From the NCBI GenBank assembly GCA_043822305.1, contig JBDRBU010000078.1, forward strand, positions 1 through 43,318: DNA of 43,318 bases. The letters are read 5' to 3'. The notes beneath the pieces are model-generated. The model was given only the letters and a program-made list of their open reading frames with translations, ran no database searches and was not told the origin of the DNA. This DNA is from Candidatus Firestoneibacteriota bacterium. Lineage in GTDB: Bacteria > Oederibacteriota > D2-FULL-39-29 > JBDRBU01. Positions 4,519 to 39,084 of the stretch are shown piece after piece; positions within the stretch are counted from its first letter, which is position 1, and every line of letters starts with the position of its first letter. The translations under genes were made by a program, and so were the position numbers.

Positions 4519-6909
4519 ATGTTAGATATAGATAAAAAGATATTAGACATAAATAAAAATATAGTTGTGGCTGCTCCTGCTGGTTCTGGTAAGACTGAAA
4601 AATTGGCCAGAAGATATATTGCTTTACTTCTATCGGGGGTAAGTCCAGAGAGAATCTTAGCCATAACATTTACCGAGAAAGCTGCGGCTGAGATGAAAGA
4701 AAGAATATTGAAAATTTTAAGAGAGGAAAAACAGGATTTATACAGGATAATCAAAGAAAAGATTTTTTTAATGAGGATTTATACGATACATAGTTTCTGC
4801 CTTACGCTTTTAAAAAGATTTGCGTTTGAAAAGGGGTTAGACCCTAACTTTGAAATAATTGAACCAGAAGAAATGGGAGTAATTGATGAAATAATTGATT
4901 CATTCCTTGTGAAATTAATAGACGAAAAAAATAACAAACTAAAAGATTTTGTGTTAGAACTTAGTACTAAATATGGATGGAACAAACTAAAAGATTTTAT
5001 TAAAAGACTCTTTGATTTAAGGCCATCTTCATTGAAAGGGAATTTATACAGATTAGATACTTCAAATTTTTTGAGTTTGAAAGAAGAAGCCATTTCTTCA
5101 GTAAAACAAATAAATGACCTTTATGAAGTATTTAAAGAATCTTTTCAAGGAAGAGATTTTGATAAAATATTTACATGCCTAAATTCATTAACTGAGTATT
5201 TTCTTACTCAGGATGGAAAACCCAGATCGATAATTCCCAGAGAACTAAAGATTGCCTGTGATAAAGCCACTTTTAAGAATTTTACAGATAAAATGAATAA
5301 ATTTTTTAATGGAGTAAAAAAAATAATTTATAATCTTGAGATTGAAAAATTATATGAAATATTTAAATTTTGCAATGAAGAATACACCTTAAAGAAAAAA
5401 GAATTAAACCTTCTTGATTTTAATGATTTAGAGCTTCTAACTTATGAATTGCTTAATGAGAGCAGTGAAGTAGATAATATACTATTTGCTTTTGATGAAT
5501 ATACAGACCATATACTTGTTGATGAATTTCAGGATACTAATTTTTTACAGTGGACTATTATAAAAAAACTTACTGAAGAATGGAGAGCAGGGCTTGGGAG
5601 TAAAAGAGAAGAAGGTACTAATCCAACACTATTTATAGTTGGGGACAAGAAACAGTCTATATACGGTTTTAGAAATGCAAATGTTGAAGTATTTGATACA
5701 GCCATTAGAGAAATGCAAGGATGGTATGGTAAGATGTTTGCTCAAATAGGTGTTAAGGAGAATTATAGATGCGGGAGGGAAATAGTAAATTATGTTAATG
5801 ATATTTTCTCAAAAATTATGACAAGGGAAGAAAACGACCCTTACTGGAAGACTGGATATGAAAGATTTAATTCTAGACGAAAGCCAGAAGGTAAAGTTAT
5901 CCTTCTAATAATAGAAGAGAAAGAAGCGTCTAAAAAAGAAGAGGCAGAAAGAGTGGCTAAAACAATAAAAGAGATAATAAAAAATGAAAAAAAATATGTT
6001 AAACATAATGACGAGGAAATAGAAGAGAAAATAAAATACAAAGATATTGCTCTCCTTTTAAGAACAAGAACGCACTTAAATGAATATGAAACAGCCTTAA
6101 GAAAAGAAGGGATACCTATTGTTGTTGTTCGTGGATTAGGATTTCATCAGGAGCCAGAAATTACCATATTAAGGGCTCTTATTTTCTTTTTGATAGAATC
6201 TTCTGATGATTATAGTTTGTATTTACTTTTGAAAAGTCCACTTTTAAATATCTCTGAAGATGAAATTTTAGAGATGGCTCAAAAGCAGGGGTTAACACTT
6301 TATGAAAAAATAAAAGATGATGAAAATTTGAGGATATTAAATGAAACATTAAAAAAAGTAAACAAATCTCCGTTAAACCATTTAATAGAGGAATTTCTCA
6401 TTAAAACAAAAGGTTGGGAAGTATTTTATGAACTTCAAAGGACGGCTAATATTAAAAAATTCATTCAAATAGTTCAGGAGTTTGAGTCGCAAGGCAAATC
6501 GTTACAAAGCATAAAGGCATATTTTGAAGAAAAAATGAATGCATTAGAAGAGCCAAAGGCGAATTTAAATACAGAGGAGATGGATGCTGTAAAAATCATG
6601 ACAATCCATACAGCTAAGGGGTTAGAGTTTCCTGTTGTCTTTGTTGTCGGGATGGAAAAAAAGATTGAAGAAAATAAAGATGAAATTAGGGTAAAAGTAA
6701 ATGAGGATAATATAAACATTTTATACTGCCCTGATTACAATATAAGAAGAGAAGAAGAAGATTTTCGAGAGTTAATAAATAAAGAAGAAGAGGAAGAAAA
6801 AAGAATATTTTATGTTGCTTTAACTAGAGCCAGGGATATATTAGTTCTTTCAGGTGTAAAATCATCCGAGTCAAAAGGTTTCTGGAAGTATGTTGTCGAT
6901 GACCGGTGA
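4519..6909 (+). CDS. UvrD/AddA-like SF1 helicase, apparently lacking the C-terminal nuclease domain
   Basis: APAGSGKT, DEFQD, VGDKKQSIYGFR, TIHTAKGLEF, YVALTRAR; ends ~25 aa after motif VI. Confidence 0.85.
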   Translation: MLDIDKKILDINKNIVVAAPAGSGKTEKLARRYIALLLSGVSPERILAITFTEKAAAEMKERILKILREEKQDLYRIIKEKIFLMRIYTIHSFCLTLLKRFAFEKGLDPNFEIIEPEEMGVIDEIIDSFLVKLIDEKNNKLKDFVLELSTKYGWNKLKDFIKRLFDLRPSSLKGNLYRLDTSNFLSLKEEAISSVKQINDLYEVFKESFQGRDFDKIFTCLNSLTEYFLTQDGKPRSIIPRELKIACDKATFKNFTDKMNKFFNGVKKIIYNLEIEKLYEIFKFCNEEYTLKKKELNLLDFNDLELLTYELLNESSEVDNILFAFDEYTDHILVDEFQDTNFLQWTIIKKLTEEWRAGLGSKREEGTNPTLFIVGDKKQSIYGFRNANVEVFDTAIREMQGWYGKMFAQIGVKENYRCGREIVNYVNDIFSKIMTREENDPYWKTGYERFNSRRKPEGKVILLIIEEKEASKKEEAERVAKTIKEIIKNEKKYVKHNDEEIEEKIKYKDIALLLRTRTHLNEYETALRKEGIPIVVVRGLGFHQEPEITILRALIFFLIESSDDYSLYLLLKSPLLNISEDEILEMAQKQGLTLYEKIKDDENLRILNETLKKVNKSPLNHLIEEFLIKTKGWEVFYELQRTANIKKFIQIVQEFESQGKSLQSIKAYFEEKMNALEEPKANLNTEEMDAVKIMTIHTAKGLEFPVVFVVGMEKKIEENKDEIRVKVNEDNINILYCPDYNIRREEEDFRELINKEEEEEKRIFYVALTRARDILVLSGVKSSESKGFWKYVVDDR

Positions 6910-11733: not shown

Positions 11734-11768
11734 AGTTCACTCCTAATGTTATAATGTTATTCCTGTTA

Positions 11769-11800
11769 TTCCCCCTTAATAAAGGGGGTGAGGGGGTTGT
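11769..11800. repeat. CCCCC/GGGGG palindromic repeat, copy 2
   Basis: Reverse complement is 31/32 identical to 891-922; abuts the atpH stop. Confidence 0.85.
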
Positions 11801-12331: not shown

Positions 12332-12365
12332 AGCCCTCTCAAGTTATTTTGATTCCCCCTTTTAA

Positions 12366-12397
12366 TTCCCCCTTGATAAAGGGGGTGAGGGGGTTGT
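12366..12397. repeat. CCCCC/GGGGG palindromic repeat, copy 3
   Basis: TTCCCCCTTGATAAAGGGGGTGAGGGGGTTGT between atpF and atpH. Confidence 0.85.
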
Positions 12398-13342: not shown

Positions 13343-14068
13343 TTAATGTTGTTCGCCAGTTTCTATTGCCCCGGCTATATATACCATTGAAAGTAAAGTA
13401 AATACTAAAGCCTGAATAAAACTTACCAAGACACCAAGTAACATTATAAGAGGTCTCAATATTAGAGGAAACACTGACAGAATTATACCAATTTTAGGTA
13501 TAGAAGAGAAAGCTACAAATAATACAGCAAGTATTCCTAATAATATCTCTTTGGCCATTATGTTTCCAAATAAACGGATTGATAAAGATAAGGGTCTTGC
13601 TAATTCACTTATTATATGAATAGGAAAAAGTATAGGAGATAGCCAGTAAGGCGGCCCTAAAAAATGTTTAAAGTATCGCCATAATCCTTTTTCTTTTATT
13701 CCAAAGTAGTGAATGGAGAAAAATATAATTAAGGCTAGAGATATTGTAACATTTATATTACTGGTTGGAGACTTAAACCCTGGTATTAATCCTATTAAAT
13801 TTGAAAAAAGGATAAACAAAAATAAAGTTATAAATAATGGTAAAAATCTTGGGCCATTTTCTCCCAGAAATTCTTTTGATTTTAAGATAATCCATTCTAC
13901 AATATATTCAACAGCGTTTTGTAATCCAACAGGAGATTTACTTATTTTTCTTTTTGCAAATAAACATAATGTTATAATAATAACCATAACAATCCAGGAC
14001 ATGGTAACCACATCAGGGATTCCGGGTATTTTAATCAAAATTATTTCTTTTAAAACGCCTTCTTCCAT
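13343..14068 (-). CDS. atpB: ATP synthase subunit a
   Basis: SPTSNIN, RPLSLSIRLFGN, IQALVFTLL. Confidence 0.96.
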   Translation of the reverse strand: MEEGVLKEIILIKIPGIPDVVTMSWIVMVIIITLCLFAKRKISKSPVGLQNAVEYIVEWIILKSKEFLGENGPRFLPLFITLFLFILFSNLIGLIPGFKSPTSNINVTISLALIIFFSIHYFGIKEKGLWRYFKHFLGPPYWLSPILFPIHIISELARPLSLSIRLFGNIMAKEILLGILAVLFVAFSSIPKIGIILSVFPLILRPLIMLLGVLVSFIQALVFTLLSMVYIAGAIETGEQH

Positions 14069-14077
14069 AATTACCTT

Positions 14078-14175
14078 GACTTTCCATAATGTAAATAAAT
14101 AATACTTATCCTGTCCCTGAGCCTTGCGAATGGTACAGGGTTAGGAATAGTTGTTCGCCAAAGCGAACAGACTAT
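14078..14175 (-). repeat. 61-bp hairpin element, copy C, carrying a ~36-bp palindromic insertion
   Basis: Matches the 14646-14767 units on both sides of the insertion at ~14105-14140. Confidence 0.8.
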
Positions 14176-14441
14176 GACTTAAAAAACAATCTAAAAGGTG
14201 AAATTAAAGTAACAACAATCAAAGAAACTGCCGTGGCTATAAAAGTTGTTCGACCAAGTAACTTAACGACTAAAATTAAAACACAAGTTAGAATTATAAA
14301 TCTTATTAAGTAACCTATTATGGCGAATTTTCTGCCCTTATTTTTTTCTAAAATTAAAGATTTCTTTACGGTTAAATATAACAAGTAAGAATTAATAATA
14401 CCTGTTAAAACTCCGATAACAATCCCTAATATTATACTCAT
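14172..14441 (-). CDS. atpI: ATP synthase protein I-like membrane protein
   Basis: Hydrophobic 89 aa with YLIR motif, directly upstream of atpB. Confidence 0.7.
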   Translation of the reverse strand: MSIILGIVIGVLTGIINSYLLYLTVKKSLILEKNKGRKFAIIGYLIRFIILTCVLILVVKLLGRTTFIATAVSLIVVTLISPFRLFFKS

Positions 14442-14644
14442 TTTATCTTATTTAATCCACTAAATATGTTTAAAAACCCAGCCATGATTCCTAATATTAA
14501 AAAAATTAAAGTAAAAATTGGAGAAGAGCTAAATAAATCATCTAAAAAAATACCAAAACCAAGTCCAACGAATATAGAAACTACTAATGTCATTCCAATA
14601 CTGCTGGCCCACCCTAATTTAACTAAAGATTTAAAGTCAGTCAT
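14438..14644 (-). CDS. atpZ: AtpZ/AtpI family protein
   Basis: G..LD..F.SSPIF....LILGIMAGF pattern; first gene of the operon. Confidence 0.8.
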   Translation of the reverse strand: MTDFKSLVKLGWASSIGMTLVVSIFVGLGFGIFLDDLFSSSPIFTLIFLILGIMAGFLNIFSGLNKIK

Positions 14645-14645
14645 T

Positions 14646-14767
14646 GACTCTCCATAATGTAATAAATAATATCAGAAATAGTTGGTTCCGAAAGTAACCA
14701 GACTATGACTTCCCATAATGTAAACAAATAATATCAGGAATAGTTGGTTACGAAGTAACCAGACTAT
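14646..14767 (-). repeat. Two tandem 61-bp hairpin elements (copies A and B)
   Basis: 14646-14706 and 14707-14767 are direct repeats. Confidence 0.9.
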
Positions 14768-14834
14768 AAATAATAATAACATAAAGAGAGTGGAAATATC
14801 AATATAAAATTATAATGTCTTTGCCTTTTTAATA

Positions 14835-14863
14835 TTGTATTCTTTAATGAATTATGTTATAAT
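14835..14863 (+). promoter_or_regulatory. Sigma70-type promoter for the micropeptide/pseudopilin operon
   Basis: TTGTAT-17 bp-TATAAT with extended -10 TG. Confidence 0.65.
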
Positions 14864-14889
14864 TTGTAAATCAAAAGGAGGATAACCTT

Positions 14890-14937
14890 ATGTGCGGTTC
14901 TTGTGGATGTTCCAAAAAAACTAAAAAGAAAAAATAA
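14890..14937 (+). CDS. 15-aa Cys-rich basic micropeptide MCGSCGCSKKTKKKK (not in the ORF track)
   Basis: AGGAGG SD at 14876-14881, 8 nt before the ATG; promoter just upstream; stop overlaps the TAAGGA SD of the next gene. Confidence 0.65.
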   Translation: MCGSCGCSKKTKKKK

Positions 14938-14950
14938 GGATATCTTGTAT

Positions 14951-15364
14951 ATGCTTTTAAAGAAAAAAAAGTTGATAATAGGTTTTACACTAATAGAACT
15001 TATGATTGTTGTAGCCGTATTAGGGCTTATTGCTGCTGTGGCCATCCCTAAATTCGGAGAACTTTTAGAGAGAAGCAGGGAAGGCACAACAAAGGGAAAT
15101 ATTGGCGCAATAAGATCTGCTATAGCAGTCTACTATAGTGATAATGAAGGTAAATATCCTGATGACTTTTTATCTTTTAATAAATATTTAGAACCAATAC
15201 CGAGTGCAAAGGCAACTCCTTTGGGGAATACAAATGCTATTACTCTACAAGCAGGTATTCCAACTTCAGCCGGTGTTGGCTGGTCATATGATAGTGATAC
15301 TGGTGAAACTTGGTGCAATAGTACCGCGTTAGATACACGGGGAGTTTCATTTACAAGTTATTAA
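14951..15364 (+). CDS. Type IV pilin / GspG-like pseudopilin
   Basis: Basic leader followed by G|FTLIELMIVV prepilin cleavage motif; ATG 14951 has an SD, unlike the listed GTG at 14903. Confidence 0.88.
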   Translation: MLLKKKKLIIGFTLIELMIVVAVLGLIAAVAIPKFGELLERSREGTTKGNIGAIRSAIAVYYSDNEGKYPDDFLSFNKYLEPIPSAKATPLGNTNAITLQAGIPTSAGVGWSYDSDTGETWCNSTALDTRGVSFTSY

Positions 15365-15396
15365 TATAAAAACAAAATATAAAAGGAGGTAAATTT

Positions 15397-16080
15397 ATGC
15401 CAGAAAATATGAGTTTATTGCAGGCAATAGGTAGAAATGTTTGGGCATTACTTACTATTGCGGTTTTAATAGTTTGTTCATTTTTATCAGTATATTTTAT
15501 GATAGAAAGGTTTTTAAGATATAAAAAAGCAAAAATAGATACAACACATTTGCTTGGTAAAATTAGAAGGATATTAATTAAAAATGGGAAGTTTAACAAA
15601 ACGAACATTCCTCAAGCATTAGATTTATGTAAAGAGACAAGAGGTCCAGTTGCTGTTACTTTAATGGCTGGATTAGTAAAATTCTCATGTCCAAAAGAGG
15701 AAATAGAAGACAACATGCAAAAAACTGCATTAGAAGAAGTTTCTAAATTAGAGCAAAATCTTGTAGTAATTGGAAGTATTGGAAGCGTTGCTCCATTTAT
15801 AGGATTACTTGGAACAGTTATTGGTGTAACGGAATCTTTTATGAGATTATCATCCATGGGAGGTGGAGGGATAAATGTAGTTGGCGCAGGTATAGCTCAG
15901 GCATTAGTTGCGACTATTATAGGATTATTTGTAGCCATCCCTGCGGTTGTTGGCTATAACATTCTTATCCGCATGGTAAACAATTTTTCTACCGAGATGA
16001 CAACAAGTTCAGTAGAACTTATAAGTATTATCACGACAAAAAGTATTGGGAAAGAAGACTTAGAAGAAACAAAGGAGTAA
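15397..16080 (+). CDS. MotA/TolQ/ExbB proton channel protein
   Basis: APFIGLLGTVIG, GIAQALVAT..GLFVAIPA. Confidence 0.93.
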   Translation: MPENMSLLQAIGRNVWALLTIAVLIVCSFLSVYFMIERFLRYKKAKIDTTHLLGKIRRILIKNGKFNKTNIPQALDLCKETRGPVAVTLMAGLVKFSCPKEEIEDNMQKTALEEVSKLEQNLVVIGSIGSVAPFIGLLGTVIGVTESFMRLSSMGGGGINVVGAGIAQALVATIIGLFVAIPAVVGYNILIRMVNNFSTEMTTSSVELISIITTKSIGKEDLEETKE

Positions 16081-16083
16081 TTC

Positions 16084-16500
16084 ATGATAAATCTAAATAA
16101 AGAAAGAAAAGTATTCTCAGAGATAAATATTACCCCTTTAACAGATGTGGCCTTAGTCCTTCTCATTATATTTATGATTACGGCCCCACTAATAATGCAG
16201 TCCGGTATAAAAGTAAAACTGCCTGGAGCAGTAACATCAGATTTTTCGCCAGAGAAAAATATTATCTTAACTATCCCCGCGGATGGAAAGGTATATCTGG
16301 GTAATCAGGAGATTGCTTTAAAAGATTTATTTGAGCCGATGGCTGCTTTACTTGCTATTAGCCAAACTAAAATTGTAGTAATAAATGCCGATAAAGATGT
16401 TGCGCATGGTATTGTTGTTTCTGTCCTTGATATAGCCAGGCAGGCTGGTGCAGAAAAATTATTTGAATCTACCGAGCATAAAGAACTGATTAAAAAGTAA
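16084..16500 (+). CDS. ExbD/TolR family protein
   Basis: EINITPLTDVALVLLIIFMITAP with the conserved Asp. Confidence 0.93.
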   Translation: MINLNKERKVFSEINITPLTDVALVLLIIFMITAPLIMQSGIKVKLPGAVTSDFSPEKNIILTIPADGKVYLGNQEIALKDLFEPMAALLAISQTKIVVINADKDVAHGIVVSVLDIARQAGAEKLFESTEHKELIKK

Positions 16501-16545
16501 GGACAGGTCGCAACCTATCATTACGAAATCCAAAAGGGTTGTTTT

Positions 16546-17796
16546 ATGATAATGGATAAGATTTCTAAAATATCGTTTTTTATAACTTTAATTGGACATA
16601 CTATTATTGTGGTCGCAGTTGGAATTATTATATCCATGCCAGCAAAAGAATATATACCTTTAGTTGAAATTAGTTTAGTAAATCTTCCAAAAAAACTCAC
16701 AGAAGGAATTAATTTGCCAGGCGGACCATCTGAGGGAACGAAGGAAAAAATTCAACAACCTAAATCGACAGAAAGTTTACTTCCTCCTTCAGAAGTGGGA
16801 GTTACTCAGGATGTTGGATTAATTAACTCTATAGATATAGTTGGAAGTGGTGTTGCCAAAAATTTATTTTTTAGAGAAGGAAAAGTTGCTGGATTTTCAT
16901 TTACTGGTAGTGGAATTCGCAAGGCAAAACCAGATAATGTTTTTATTAAATTTTCTGTAATATCTGATATCTCAAATACTTTAAGGGCAGCAGAGATAAG
17001 CATAGGAAGAAAAATAGATTTTGTAATATACAATGTAGGAAGACGGCTTTCTATAAAAAAAGAAGATTTTAAAGTAACAGCACCTAAACTACAGATGATA
17101 GAACAGGTTATAAAGGCACCATCATCAGATGATAAAGGAGGTTCTTCAAAAAAAGAGCATAAGTATACAATTGCAAAGAATATCATCGTAAATAATCTTG
17201 GTAATAGGAAATTAGTAGATATATGCGAAATCATTGATATGGCTATTAATTATGGAGCAGTGGCTATATCTCAAACTTCTGCTGATAATCCAAGTTGGGT
17301 ACAAAGTTCAAAAGCATTAGGAGAAAAAAATTCATCTGTTTCATCATCACGAGGAATGCCAAAAACAAATGTAGATTTTGAGATGCAATCACCTTCAAAT
17401 GAACTTATAAATTATTATCTTAAGGCGGAAACATTTGAAAGAATGATAAAAGAAGCGAAGGATGAAGCATTACAGGATGCAAAAAAACAGGTTGAGAATG
17501 TAAAAAAAGTACTACATTTTGATGAGAAAGAAATGGAAATAAAATTTGATGAAAGTACTTCTACTTTAATAAGCGAAGAGGATGAAATAGTAGTAAAGGT
17601 TGATGTTACGGCAGTTCTTTATAGACCTAAAAAATCAGAGAAAGATGTTGAGTTAGAAGAATTCTGGACGGAAAAAAAGACTCAAGAAAACGAAAAGAGA
17701 ATGAAAGAGATTATGAATAATATAGAGAATATTAAAAAAGATGTTAAAGATATGAATGTGAAAGAGAAGGTAGATTCAGTTGAAGAAGGGGAGTAA
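16546..17796 (+). CDS. TonB/TolA-like anchored protein with a SIMPL(DUF541)-like domain
   Basis: TM helix with TxxxH; FTGSG...KPD and EAKDEALQDAKKQVE patterns resemble SIMPL. Confidence 0.55.
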   Translation: MIMDKISKISFFITLIGHTIIVVAVGIIISMPAKEYIPLVEISLVNLPKKLTEGINLPGGPSEGTKEKIQQPKSTESLLPPSEVGVTQDVGLINSIDIVGSGVAKNLFFREGKVAGFSFTGSGIRKAKPDNVFIKFSVISDISNTLRAAEISIGRKIDFVIYNVGRRLSIKKEDFKVTAPKLQMIEQVIKAPSSDDKGGSSKKEHKYTIAKNIIVNNLGNRKLVDICEIIDMAINYGAVAISQTSADNPSWVQSSKALGEKNSSVSSSRGMPKTNVDFEMQSPSNELINYYLKAETFERMIKEAKDEALQDAKKQVENVKKVLHFDEKEMEIKFDESTSTLISEEDEIVVKVDVTAVLYRPKKSEKDVELEEFWTEKKTQENEKRMKEIMNNIENIKKDVKDMNVKEKVDSVEEGE

Positions 17797-17808
17797 CTGG
17801 AGAAATTC

Positions 17809-18399
17809 ATGCATTTAGAGCAGTTTCCAGTATATAAAGCAATTACAGAAAGGCGAACTATTCGCAGGTTTAAACAGGACAAGATATCAGATGAGATACT
17901 AAAAAAATTAGTTAACGCGGGAAGACTTGCTCCATCTGGTGCTAATCTTCAACCAATAGAATATATTATCGTAAATGATGAGGCGTTAGTAGTTGAAGTT
18001 TTTAAAAATGTTAAATGGGCTGGCTATATTACTCCAAAAGGCAATCCAAAAGAAGGAGAAAAACCTACGGCTTATATTATAGTTCTTGTCGATAGAGATA
18101 ATAAGGGAACAACAGCAAATTATGATGTAGGTGCAGCCGTAGAAAATGTTTTGTTGACTTCTGGGGAAGAAGAAATTGGAACTTGTTGGATGGGTTCTAT
18201 TGATAGGGAAAATTTAAGAAAGATTTTTAATGTGCCTAATGATTTTATAATTGATTCTGTTATAGCCTTAGGATATAAAGGAGAGAATCCTGTAGTTGAG
18301 GAATACAAAGGTTCGGTTAAGTACTGGAAAGATGAAGGTGATATTTTACATATCCCCAAGAGAAATCTAAAAGATATCCTACACTGGAATAAGTTTTAA
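17809..18399 (+). CDS. Nitroreductase family protein
   Basis: RRTIRRF, APSGANLQP, GTCWMG. Confidence 0.93.
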   Translation: MHLEQFPVYKAITERRTIRRFKQDKISDEILKKLVNAGRLAPSGANLQPIEYIIVNDEALVVEVFKNVKWAGYITPKGNPKEGEKPTAYIIVLVDRDNKGTTANYDVGAAVENVLLTSGEEEIGTCWMGSIDRENLRKIFNVPNDFIIDSVIALGYKGENPVVEEYKGSVKYWKDEGDILHIPKRNLKDILHWNKF

Positions 18400-18459
18400 T
18401 AGGTCTAATTGCTTCGCAATTAACCATGACCAATATTATATTTTACACTAAGGTAAGTC
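18399..18459 (+). repeat. 61-bp hairpin element, copy D (diverged)
   Basis: Same length, bulged 7-bp hairpin and TTTACA..GG.AAGTCA tail as copies A-C. Confidence 0.65.
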
Positions 18460-24894: not shown

Positions 24895-25061
24895 TAAATA
24901 GTCAGTGAAAGCCGTGAGAATTATATTTTTATATTTCCATATTCCCCCTTTGTTAAGGGGGAATCAAGGGGGTTGTTGTTATGAATATCTATGACAATAC
25001 GATATGGAACGGCAACGATTATTAAAAGAACAACCCCCTAACCCCCTTTGTTAAGGGGGAA
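24895..25061. repeat. 21-bp motif followed by an inverted pair of CCCCC/GGGGG repeats
   Basis: TAAATAGTCAGTGAAAGCCGT (24895-24915); repeats at 24942-24976 and 25030-25061 in opposite orientation. Confidence 0.8.
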
Positions 25062-25085
25062 TTAAAAATTAGAGAGGCAATAAAC

Positions 25086-34579: not shown

Positions 34580-34826
34580 AATGTCCTTAAAAATGTCCCT
34601 AAAATGTCCCAGAAAAAGGATTACAATCCAATCACTATAAAAGTCTAATTTAAAGTTATACTAATTGCTCATAAATACTATGTTATATCAGGAAAAGATC
34701 TTATTTTTTTGCTGATTGATATTGCATAAATTGTGTAATTTTGTTATTATTAATCTTAAGAGTATAAAAAAATTTAAATGTAAAATCTGTTGCTACAAAA
34801 AAATTAATGTTTGATATTTTAGATTA

Positions 34827-38986: not shown

Positions 38987-39084
38987 TGAACCATTCGCTA
39001 ACGCTCAGGTTCATGGCTCAGCCATAATAATATGGATGCAAATGGTTCATGCCCTGCACCGGAGCGAAGCGACTGGTACAGGGC
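38981..39084. repeat. Two palindromes with a shared GAGC..GCGA.TGG core between the tRNA and the GIY-YIG gene
   Basis: 12-bp perfect stem 38981-38992/39008-39019; second stem 39051-39084. Confidence 0.75.

Follow-up and report, generated by a model that had tools for sequence, protein, structure and literature searches.

Small bulged-hairpin repeats at gene junctions of a Candidatus Firestoneibacteriota genome: a probable REP-like family

Elements of the IS200/IS605 type carry a subterminal imperfect hairpin with an extrahelical base, have no terminal inverted repeats and produce no target duplication. The attC site is likewise a folded single-strand site, in which the structure and the extrahelical bases are conserved and the cores are RYYYAAC ... 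GTTRRRY. The Rickettsia palindromic elements (RPEs) are longer than the repeat considered here, and in-frame insertion is their main habit. The repetitive extragenic palindromes (REPs) with the GTAG tag, according to Di Nocera et al. 2013 (PMC3733652), have termini that often supply TAG stop codons, subfamilies with alternative complementary stem residues and, in some cases, 12–13-bp stems with 1-bp bulges; GTAG is terminal in more than 90% of the members of most families, and the listed variants affect positions 2–3. The corresponding transposase, TnpA-REP, acts on single-stranded REPs and cuts at CT near the hairpin; the bulge is needed in E. coli, and the 5' tetranucleotide guides the choice of the cut site, according to Corneloup et al. 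2021 (PMC8266576). Finally, mycobacterial interspersed repetitive units (MIRUs) insert at start codons with little harm, as summarised in a 2025 review (PMC12548453). Here we describe a small hairpin repeat found in four copies in a 43,318-nucleotide stretch of DNA from a Candidatus Firestoneibacteriota bacterium (the whole of this stretch is called the window below). Our preferred description, to which we assign a probability of about 0.55, is a REP-like non-autonomous mobile element moved by a Y1 (HUH) enzyme.

The repeat family and its hairpin

The window is contig C78 of the draft genome G000 (2.15 Mb, 31.6% G+C, 125 contigs, assembly completeness 96.8%), which is the sole member of its family and genus among the sampled genomes. 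This genome is gene-dense, with about 92% in long open reading frames (ORFs); the genes were called by our own long-ORF caller, covering 91.6% of G000. An earlier note on the window listed four copies of the element, here denoted A to D (Table 1), and their positions were confirmed both by reading the sequence and by scanning the window with the covariance model R1, constructed from the alignment A1 of 48 distinct full-length genomic copies. The scan was done with filters off and E up to 10, and its only matches were the four copies; a degenerate arm suggested at 34665–34697 gave none. In copy C, 98 nt long, an otherwise normal unit is interrupted by a 36-nt hairpin from a different family of repeats.

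The window copies belong to a family of about 55–60 small hairpin DNA repeats in G000. The profile of the four copies (nhmmer) yielded 59 places in this genome at E<1e-3 and 64 in the second round. The covariance-model scan of the genome and its relatives, which the earlier note had proposed as a check, did produce further copies: R1 has 58 matches in G000 and one match (51 bits) in one of 40 relatives. Two wider scans, which may omit records of G000 or its near relatives, remained at the chance level. The 18-mer query applied to one genome per species gave 28 single matches, all with scores of 19.6–28.1 bits, that is, the 18-mer alone, and the two-block pattern applied to metagenome contigs gave two matches with scores of 18–20 bits and no hairpin. 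Comparison with Rfam revealed no known family: at the gathering score the window contains only two tRNAs, and in the scan of 13950–14900 at E<=10 the best match overlapping a copy scored 14.1 bits against 43.

The lone copy outside G000 (G008, C12:59617–59679, or L065:1501–1563) has a tRNA gene on one side and, on the other, a 17-nt duplication of that tRNA's 3' end, a setting that resembles the remnant of an integrated element. Two copies in G000, at C21:225 and C14:17939, also adjoin sequences resembling tRNA 3' ends.

The unit is 57–64 bp long and consists of a conserved A/T-rich arm of ~33 nt followed by a 12-bp hairpin. Read arm first, the arm is GACTTTCC-TA-TGTAAA, a variable A/T stretch and TTAGGA; then follow ATAGT, T with six variable bases, the loop, the complement, an unpaired G and ACTAT. 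The helix is formed by five outer and seven inner pairs, with the single unpaired G between them on the 3' side. The foot of the hairpin (T, the T-A pair, the unpaired G and A) is fixed, while the inner and outer stems vary by subfamily yet stay complementary.

The variation of the inner stem with retained pairing, seen at first in the window, is thus borne out, and it extends to the complete 12-bp helix, as the outer pairs covary too (ATAGT/ACTAT, ATGGT/ACCAT, ATACT/AGTA). The unpaired base, reported in the earlier note as G at a constant position, is G in all 48 distinct copies, and the neighbouring T-A pair is invariant. The C-GAA-G loops of copies B and D and the single stem mismatch of copy A (TGGTTCC versus GTAACCA) were found as described; in the family, GAA is the commonest loop (12 of 48 copies). 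Pairing is observed in 92.5% of 574 cells of A1, compared to 30–38% with the partner slid by 1–3 columns, and 8 of the 12 pairs show changes on both sides, covering 100 cells. The covariation score was reached by none of 500 shuffles; the shuffle test ignores relatedness, but the slid-partner controls keep it and agree. RNAalifold, unaided, produced the same bulged helix and placed no further helix in the arm. The inner stem comes in 13 variants, of which seven are represented by at least three distinct copies. The three arm types reassort with the stems, and three stem types are each seen with two arm types.

These observations support a structured DNA element whose shape, and not the stem sequence, is conserved. 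There are hardly any wobble pairs (8 of 574 cells), and hence both strands fold about equally well; for copy B the DNA folding energies are -7.1 kcal/mol (z -2.6) and, on the other strand, -6.8 kcal/mol. Equal folding of the strands is what a DNA palindrome gives and a strand-specific RNA usually does not.

The arm of some variant units (e.g. C34:20974, C39:15254) reads AAAATCAATATATTAGG, which may fit the consensus of the integration host factor site. A promoter was considered as well: matches of the TTGACT-16/17-AATAAT/TAATAT type, with the preceding T included, are present in all three plus-strand copies. This candidate was not adopted, because shuffles give 6.4 +/- 2.6 sites against the 10 observed and the columns of highest conservation coincide with what would be the spacer. 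A terminator was rejected too, with no terminator-like sites in 13900–15000.

Mobility and the gene junctions

Several arrangements of the copies point to movement. At least five loci with different host hairpins (C1, C34, C41, C67, C116) have a unit with the stem TGATTGC or TGGTTGC nested at the boundary between the arm and the hairpin of another unit, and in C74 one unit lies inside the hairpin of another. A foreign 36-nt hairpin has entered units within 1–3 nt of the same boundary in seven loci. Head-to-tail arrays of two to three units are seen in C78, C14, C121, C34 and C41. Two 57-nt copies, 297 nt apart, are inserted in frame in a transglutaminase-like gene (L175; C71:4518–4575 and 4815–4872), where they add 18–19 residues each (...ATIPK..(M/R)ES.. 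segments) and face alignment gaps (18 and 16 columns) in each of the four homologues compared (42–48% identity). The frame is open because the TAG of these copies has changed (GACCAT end). The reassortment of arms and stems and the six composite units described below point the same way. Overall, at least 40 contigs carry copies, which lie between or upstream of ordinary housekeeping genes and also within them.

The same junctions in relatives with the same gene order were used as proxies for the state before insertion. The nitroreductase and amine oxidase genes are joined by TAATG, TGATG or a 2-nt spacer in five of the seven loci shown, and the downstream protein starts at a conserved position. 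Among the nine loci shown for atpI–atpB, five have an ATGA overlap, two a 1-nt spacer and one further locus a ~25-nt spacer. The dctP–dctQM junction is TAATG in one of nine loci shown and a short spacer of roughly 10–25 nt in the other eight. At the TrmH-like junction, the neighbour genes differ in the relatives. We are much more confident that the element is a mobile dispersed repeat at all than we are about the enzyme that moves it, and its behaviour, on these data, is that of a site on which an enzyme that moves DNA acts.

The earlier note, which offered a structured cis-regulatory RNA as the alternative, assigned this role to a tyrosine recombinase of an undescribed cassette system, with integron-like attC sites and atpZ–atpI as the cassette. 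Indeed, the element resembles attC in that the structure and the extrahelical base, a fixed G, are conserved, not the sequence, and the copies do flank atpZ–atpI. However, these are normal genes of the atp operon, with the same order and tight junctions in the relatives. No integron integrase (IntI) was found in G000: the TIGR02249 scores are 161, 150, 87 and 70 bits against the cut-off of 265, and of the four tyrosine recombinases the two best are XerC and XerD, while the other two are phage-type. Direct reading of the consensus and the stem variants reveals no GTTRRRY or RYYYAAC cores, as GTT is followed by GGTT, GTTC, GCCC or AATT, none of which fits RRRY. Moreover, single copies lie apart from each other on at least 40 contigs, also inside a gene, and cassette arrays are not formed. 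Hence the cassette system is not supported, and we consider attC sites to be very improbable here.

An Xer-dependent element with a dif-like half site in the arm is hardly credible either. XerC and XerD are present, and the arm matches the left arm and spacer of one dif-like dyad of G000 at 12 of 17 positions. A dif site, however, has two 11-bp arms in a dyad with a 6-bp spacer, and the likeness proposed in the window covers one arm and the spacer, with no dyad partner: the 11 nt after the 6-nt spacer complement the left arm at 5 of 11 positions. The match at 12 of 17 has p = 7e-4 per position, which makes roughly 6–8% per 61-nt element and two strands. The matched dyad itself sits in an open reading frame, and the pattern used to find dif-like dyads was not derived from a tool.

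Nearly all copies are intergenic, and 52 loci have no overlapping long ORF. Both flanking genes are opposite to the arm-first strand in 27 of these loci and on that strand in 11; the flanking genes are in mixed orientation in seven, and the remaining seven are at a contig end. By local strand, the orientation is 36 versus 18. A single orientation relative to transcription, claimed from the window, therefore holds for the window, whereas genome-wide it is merely a 2:1 bias (27 versus 11 co-directional loci).

The way in which the copies join their neighbours was counted in the 19 opposite-strand (antisense) loci short enough to print. The upstream stop codon is in or overlaps the element in 10 of them, usually being the TAG of (C)ATAGTC, and lies 1–3 nt before the element in four. 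The downstream ATG is situated 1 nt past the arm in eight, all having the arm variant ...CTAAGGAAAGTC (gene strand), whose end is a Shine-Dalgarno (SD)-like AAGGA at 6 nt from the ATG. Other copies end immediately ahead of the SD that belongs to the neighbour. Where both genes are on the arm-first strand, T from the flank and GA from the element can give a TGA stop, and AT from the element and G from the flank can give ATG (two of six printed).

In the window, the TAG of copy C (14172–14174) is, on the gene strand, the stop codon of atpI. Copy D exactly fills the gap between the nitroreductase stop (18397–18399) and the amine-oxidase start (18461); its gene-strand end is ...CTAAGGTAAGTC, followed by one base (a) and ATG, with an SD-like AAGG at 7 nt from the ATG. 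Copy A is 1 nt from the atpZ start codon (14642–14644, minus strand). Thus, the two copies thought to end exactly at an ATG end 1 nt before it.

At the atpD–atpC junction (C72:14399–14427), a 29-nt arm-only fragment supplies the atpD stop. The atpC start after this fragment (ATGACTTTCAAT...) resembles the first bases of the arm itself.

The junctions might alternatively reflect a cis-acting RNA module, in which the hairpin would be an mRNA stabiliser or processing site, the arm a portable ribosome-binding region, and the spread a by-product. Consistent with this, 27 of 38 co-directional loci, mostly in operons, put the TAG, the hairpin, an A/U-rich tract and the SD on the mRNA, and the arrangement ...CTAAGGAAAGTC, one base, ATG recurs in eight of the 19 printed loci; moreover, judging by the relatives, the upstream gene would have contained the native SD, and hence the SD of the element must now take its place. 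However, 11 of the 38 loci have the opposite orientation, the near absence of wobble pairs leaves no strand-specific RNA signature, no Rfam family matches, and no terminator-like tail sites are seen. Nested, tandem and in-frame copies are hard to account for by function, and the family is essentially confined to one genome. All in all, an RNA module seems unlikely as the main explanation, though a cis-regulatory RNA effect may exist as a secondary one.

A REP-like element and its candidate enzymes

Compared with the GTAG REPs, as treated by Di Nocera et al. 2013 (PMC3733652), the element has the same general appearance: short, dispersed, mostly extragenic hairpins with occasional copies in ORFs, complementary stem variants, a bulged 12-bp stem and TAG stops for the neighbours. 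It also has (G/A)TAG at the hairpin foot, as do GTAG REPs and REPtrons in that paper and in Corneloup et al. 2021 (PMC8266576). The size and copy number are those of REPs (a 20–40-bp palindrome in many copies), as the hairpin module is 28–31 nt long and has 58 matches. There are differences as well. Unlike GTAG REPs, the element always has the conserved 33-nt A/T-rich arm, its tag is mostly ATAG and paired, it does not flank a REP-associated tyrosine transposase (RAYT) gene, it forms direct tandem arrays and not inverted doublets, and its hairpin module never occurs alone, save for remnants of nested copies. Neither does it have the terminal inverted repeats and target-site duplication of a classical miniature inverted-repeat transposable element. 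The element works like a REP or miniature element but departs from the definitions based on the conserved GTAG, on a flanked RAYT and on these classical ends; it is best described as a family that is new within a known class of selfish repeats.

Other systems share some of its features. With IS200/IS605 and their derivatives the element has in common the subterminal bulged hairpin, the absence of inverted ends and duplication, and a short preferred insertion sequence; unlike them, it has one hairpin per unit, not one at each end, and the hairpin of the resident IS200 is unrelated to that of the element. Like mycobacterial MIRUs (PMC12548453), it is a small repeat inserting at gene starts in operons with the translation of the neighbour preserved. 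MIRUs achieve the coupling via a small ORF of their own that shares 4 nt with the start, whereas the element gives a TAG stop and, in one subfamily, an SD 6 nt before the ATG, and the two have no sequence relation. The two 57-nt copies recall the in-frame palindromic repeats of Rickettsia genes that stay open, as mentioned in PMC3733652, although in-frame copies of the element make up only two of about 56 loci.

Several classical GTAG REP families are also present in G000. Six composite units in this genome (C36:24067, C77:11971, C85:2550, C122:12875, C123:26900 and C74:5698) each consist of a GTAG REP (GTAGTCGCAGGCT...AGCCTGCG) whose loop holds an arm variant and a short hairpin with one unpaired base (GCACCGCGAAGCGGGTGC). 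A group II intron tail was considered for the look-alike loci and rejected, these loci being not introns but REP hairpins whose loop contains an arm variant.

The first base of the element is preceded by T, often TAT or AT; no inverted terminal repeats are seen, the flanks show no target duplication, and the ends, GACTT... and ...GACTAT, are direct and not inverted. In the consensus of the arm-first strand, CT dinucleotides occur only in the terminal GACT at each end. Together with the single subterminal hairpin, its extrahelical base and conserved foot sequence, and the direct tandem arrays, this anatomy appears to match elements that Y1 HUH transposases process in the form of folded single strands. 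We infer that a tyrosine HUH (Y1) transposase, encoded elsewhere, would excise or copy the element as folded single-stranded DNA and insert it anew, and that this enzyme would read the shape of the hairpin, the unpaired base and the short foot sequence, and not the stem letters. Insertion would occur just 3' of T, often TAT or AT. In the outer stem, the foot sequence is paired to the ACTAT at the terminus, and this pairing may be a guide/cut-site duplex. The junctions show that copies persist where their own ends keep the neighbour genes working: the hairpin end supplies the TAG stop on the gene strand, in one subfamily the arm end supplies the SD 6 nt before the neighbour's ATG, and some 57-nt copies are tolerated in frame inside a protein.

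Six Y1 genes above the Pfam cut-off are present in G000, that is, one IS200 TnpA and five RAYT/TIRYT-like genes; the scores of the latter are 69–78 bits, with the curated cut-off at 80. One of the five has a DnaA-C-like tail. Inverted repeats of the GGGGWCAG type flank four of them and are also dispersed in G000. Copies of IS200 are located at the ends of contigs C64, C2, C86 and C87. No parent element with a gene between the arm and the hairpin was seen among the arm-only matches.

Some observations weigh against the assignment to a Y1 enzyme. In G000 no transposase gene has a copy next to it or copies on both sides; around the RAYT/TIRYT-like genes lie inverted repeats of their own that are unrelated to the element, the IS200 hairpin differs, and no intact RAYT in this genome scores above the curated cut-off. 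The foot tag is mostly ATAG (the outermost pair is A-T in 30 of 48 copies), GTAG fits about 5 of 48, the remaining copies have other tags, and the tag is base-paired, unlike REP tags. The left flank shows no covariation with the right end, and guide-based target choice could not be shown. The strand bias (27:11 and 36:18) is not assignable to replication, since GC skew follows the coding strand (r = 0.98) and an effect of replication cannot be separated from one of the coding strand. Finally, the junctions in the relatives are not true empty sites, because these relatives are distant.

Alternatively, the element may be mobile DNA that spreads by a route other than a Y1 transposase. A transposase of a different class that is missing from the assembly or has been lost is one candidate; others are replication slippage or a template switch at the palindrome, and recombination of one copy with another. 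The lack of a cognate enzyme identified in G000 agrees with this, as do the 125 contigs and 96.8% completeness of the assembly; further, arms and stems reassort, and unequal exchange could make the arrays grow. On the other hand, no IS110 or TnpB genes were found in G000, and the subterminal hairpin and extrahelical base, with no inverted ends or target duplication, fit HUH enzymes best (PMC8266576). Hence such a route is rather improbable.

Within the description of the element as a substrate of a Y1 enzyme, we tentatively propose a bolder version, itself doubtful: transposition by a single hairpin recognised by shape only, with the arm serving as a portable stop/ribosome-binding/start adaptor, and the enzyme being an off-target TIR-type Y1 or an undescribed one. 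If this is true, the element would enter translationally coupled junctions and even reading frames without harm. Then at least seven stem sequences would propagate side by side in one genome, and the fixed features would be the 12-bp helix, the unpaired G five pairs from the foot and the constant T-A/G/A foot itself.

Coordinates, other repeats and implications

Table 1. Copies of the element and associated features in the window, and candidate Y1 genes elsewhere in G000
Feature	Position	Strand	Remarks
Copy A	14646–14706	+	first unit of head-to-tail pair; R1 63.6 bits
Copy A, arm	14646–14677	+	
Copy A, hairpin	14678–14706	+	ATAGT-TGGTTCC-GAAA-GTAACCA-G-ACTAT, one inner mismatch; unpaired G at 14701
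Copy B	14707–14767	+	arm 14707–14739; hairpin 14740–14767, GAA loop; unpaired G at 14762; R1 match 14707–14768, 80.7 bits
Copy C	14078–14175	+	between atpI and atpB; R1 matches 14078–14176 as two halves, 33.0 and 37.5 bits
Copy C, first part of arm	14078–14104	+	
Nested insert in copy C	14105–14140	+	second small hairpin family, CCTGT.CC...GGTACAGG
Copy C, remainder of arm and hairpin	14141–14175	+	stem TGTTCGC/GCGAACA; unpaired G at 14170
Copy D	18399–18459	-	subfamily stem TAATTGC/GCAATTA, GAA loop; R1 67.5 bits
Context genes, outside the element	13343–14644	-	atpB 13343–14068, atpI 14172–14441, atpZ-type 14438–14644
RAYT/TIRYT-like Y1 genes	C51:22716–23429, C100:23000–23671, C81:27216–27923, C81:21933–22904, C68:4363–5040		

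The family of the insert in copy C (about 36 nt, with CCTGT.CC and GGTACAGG as the pattern) has 24 pattern matches, both strands counted. They include a second window site, 39053–39082, and sites in C9, C28, C32, C34, C37, C51, C66, C103 and others. This hairpin is mostly found in the loops of GTAG-tagged REPs, and in seven loci inside the arm of the 61-bp element; in both contexts it is inserted just 5' of TTAG. Another repeat, ATTCCCCCTT.ATAAAGGGGGTGAGGGGGTTGT, is present in the window in both orientations (891–944, 11768–11800, 12365–12397, 24941–24973 and 25030–25073), and two of its copies lie between atp genes.

The family shows in good resolution how very small selfish repeats can spread through a gene-dense genome and leave its operons intact. 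The element brings its own stop, one subfamily also brings a ribosome-binding site, and the element sits 1 nt from the start codon of the neighbour. For annotation, the units account for unusual gene ends, for spurious short ORFs and for the two inserts of 18–19 residues in a conserved protein. The many stem variants around one invariant unpaired base form a natural data set on what a single-strand transposase reads.

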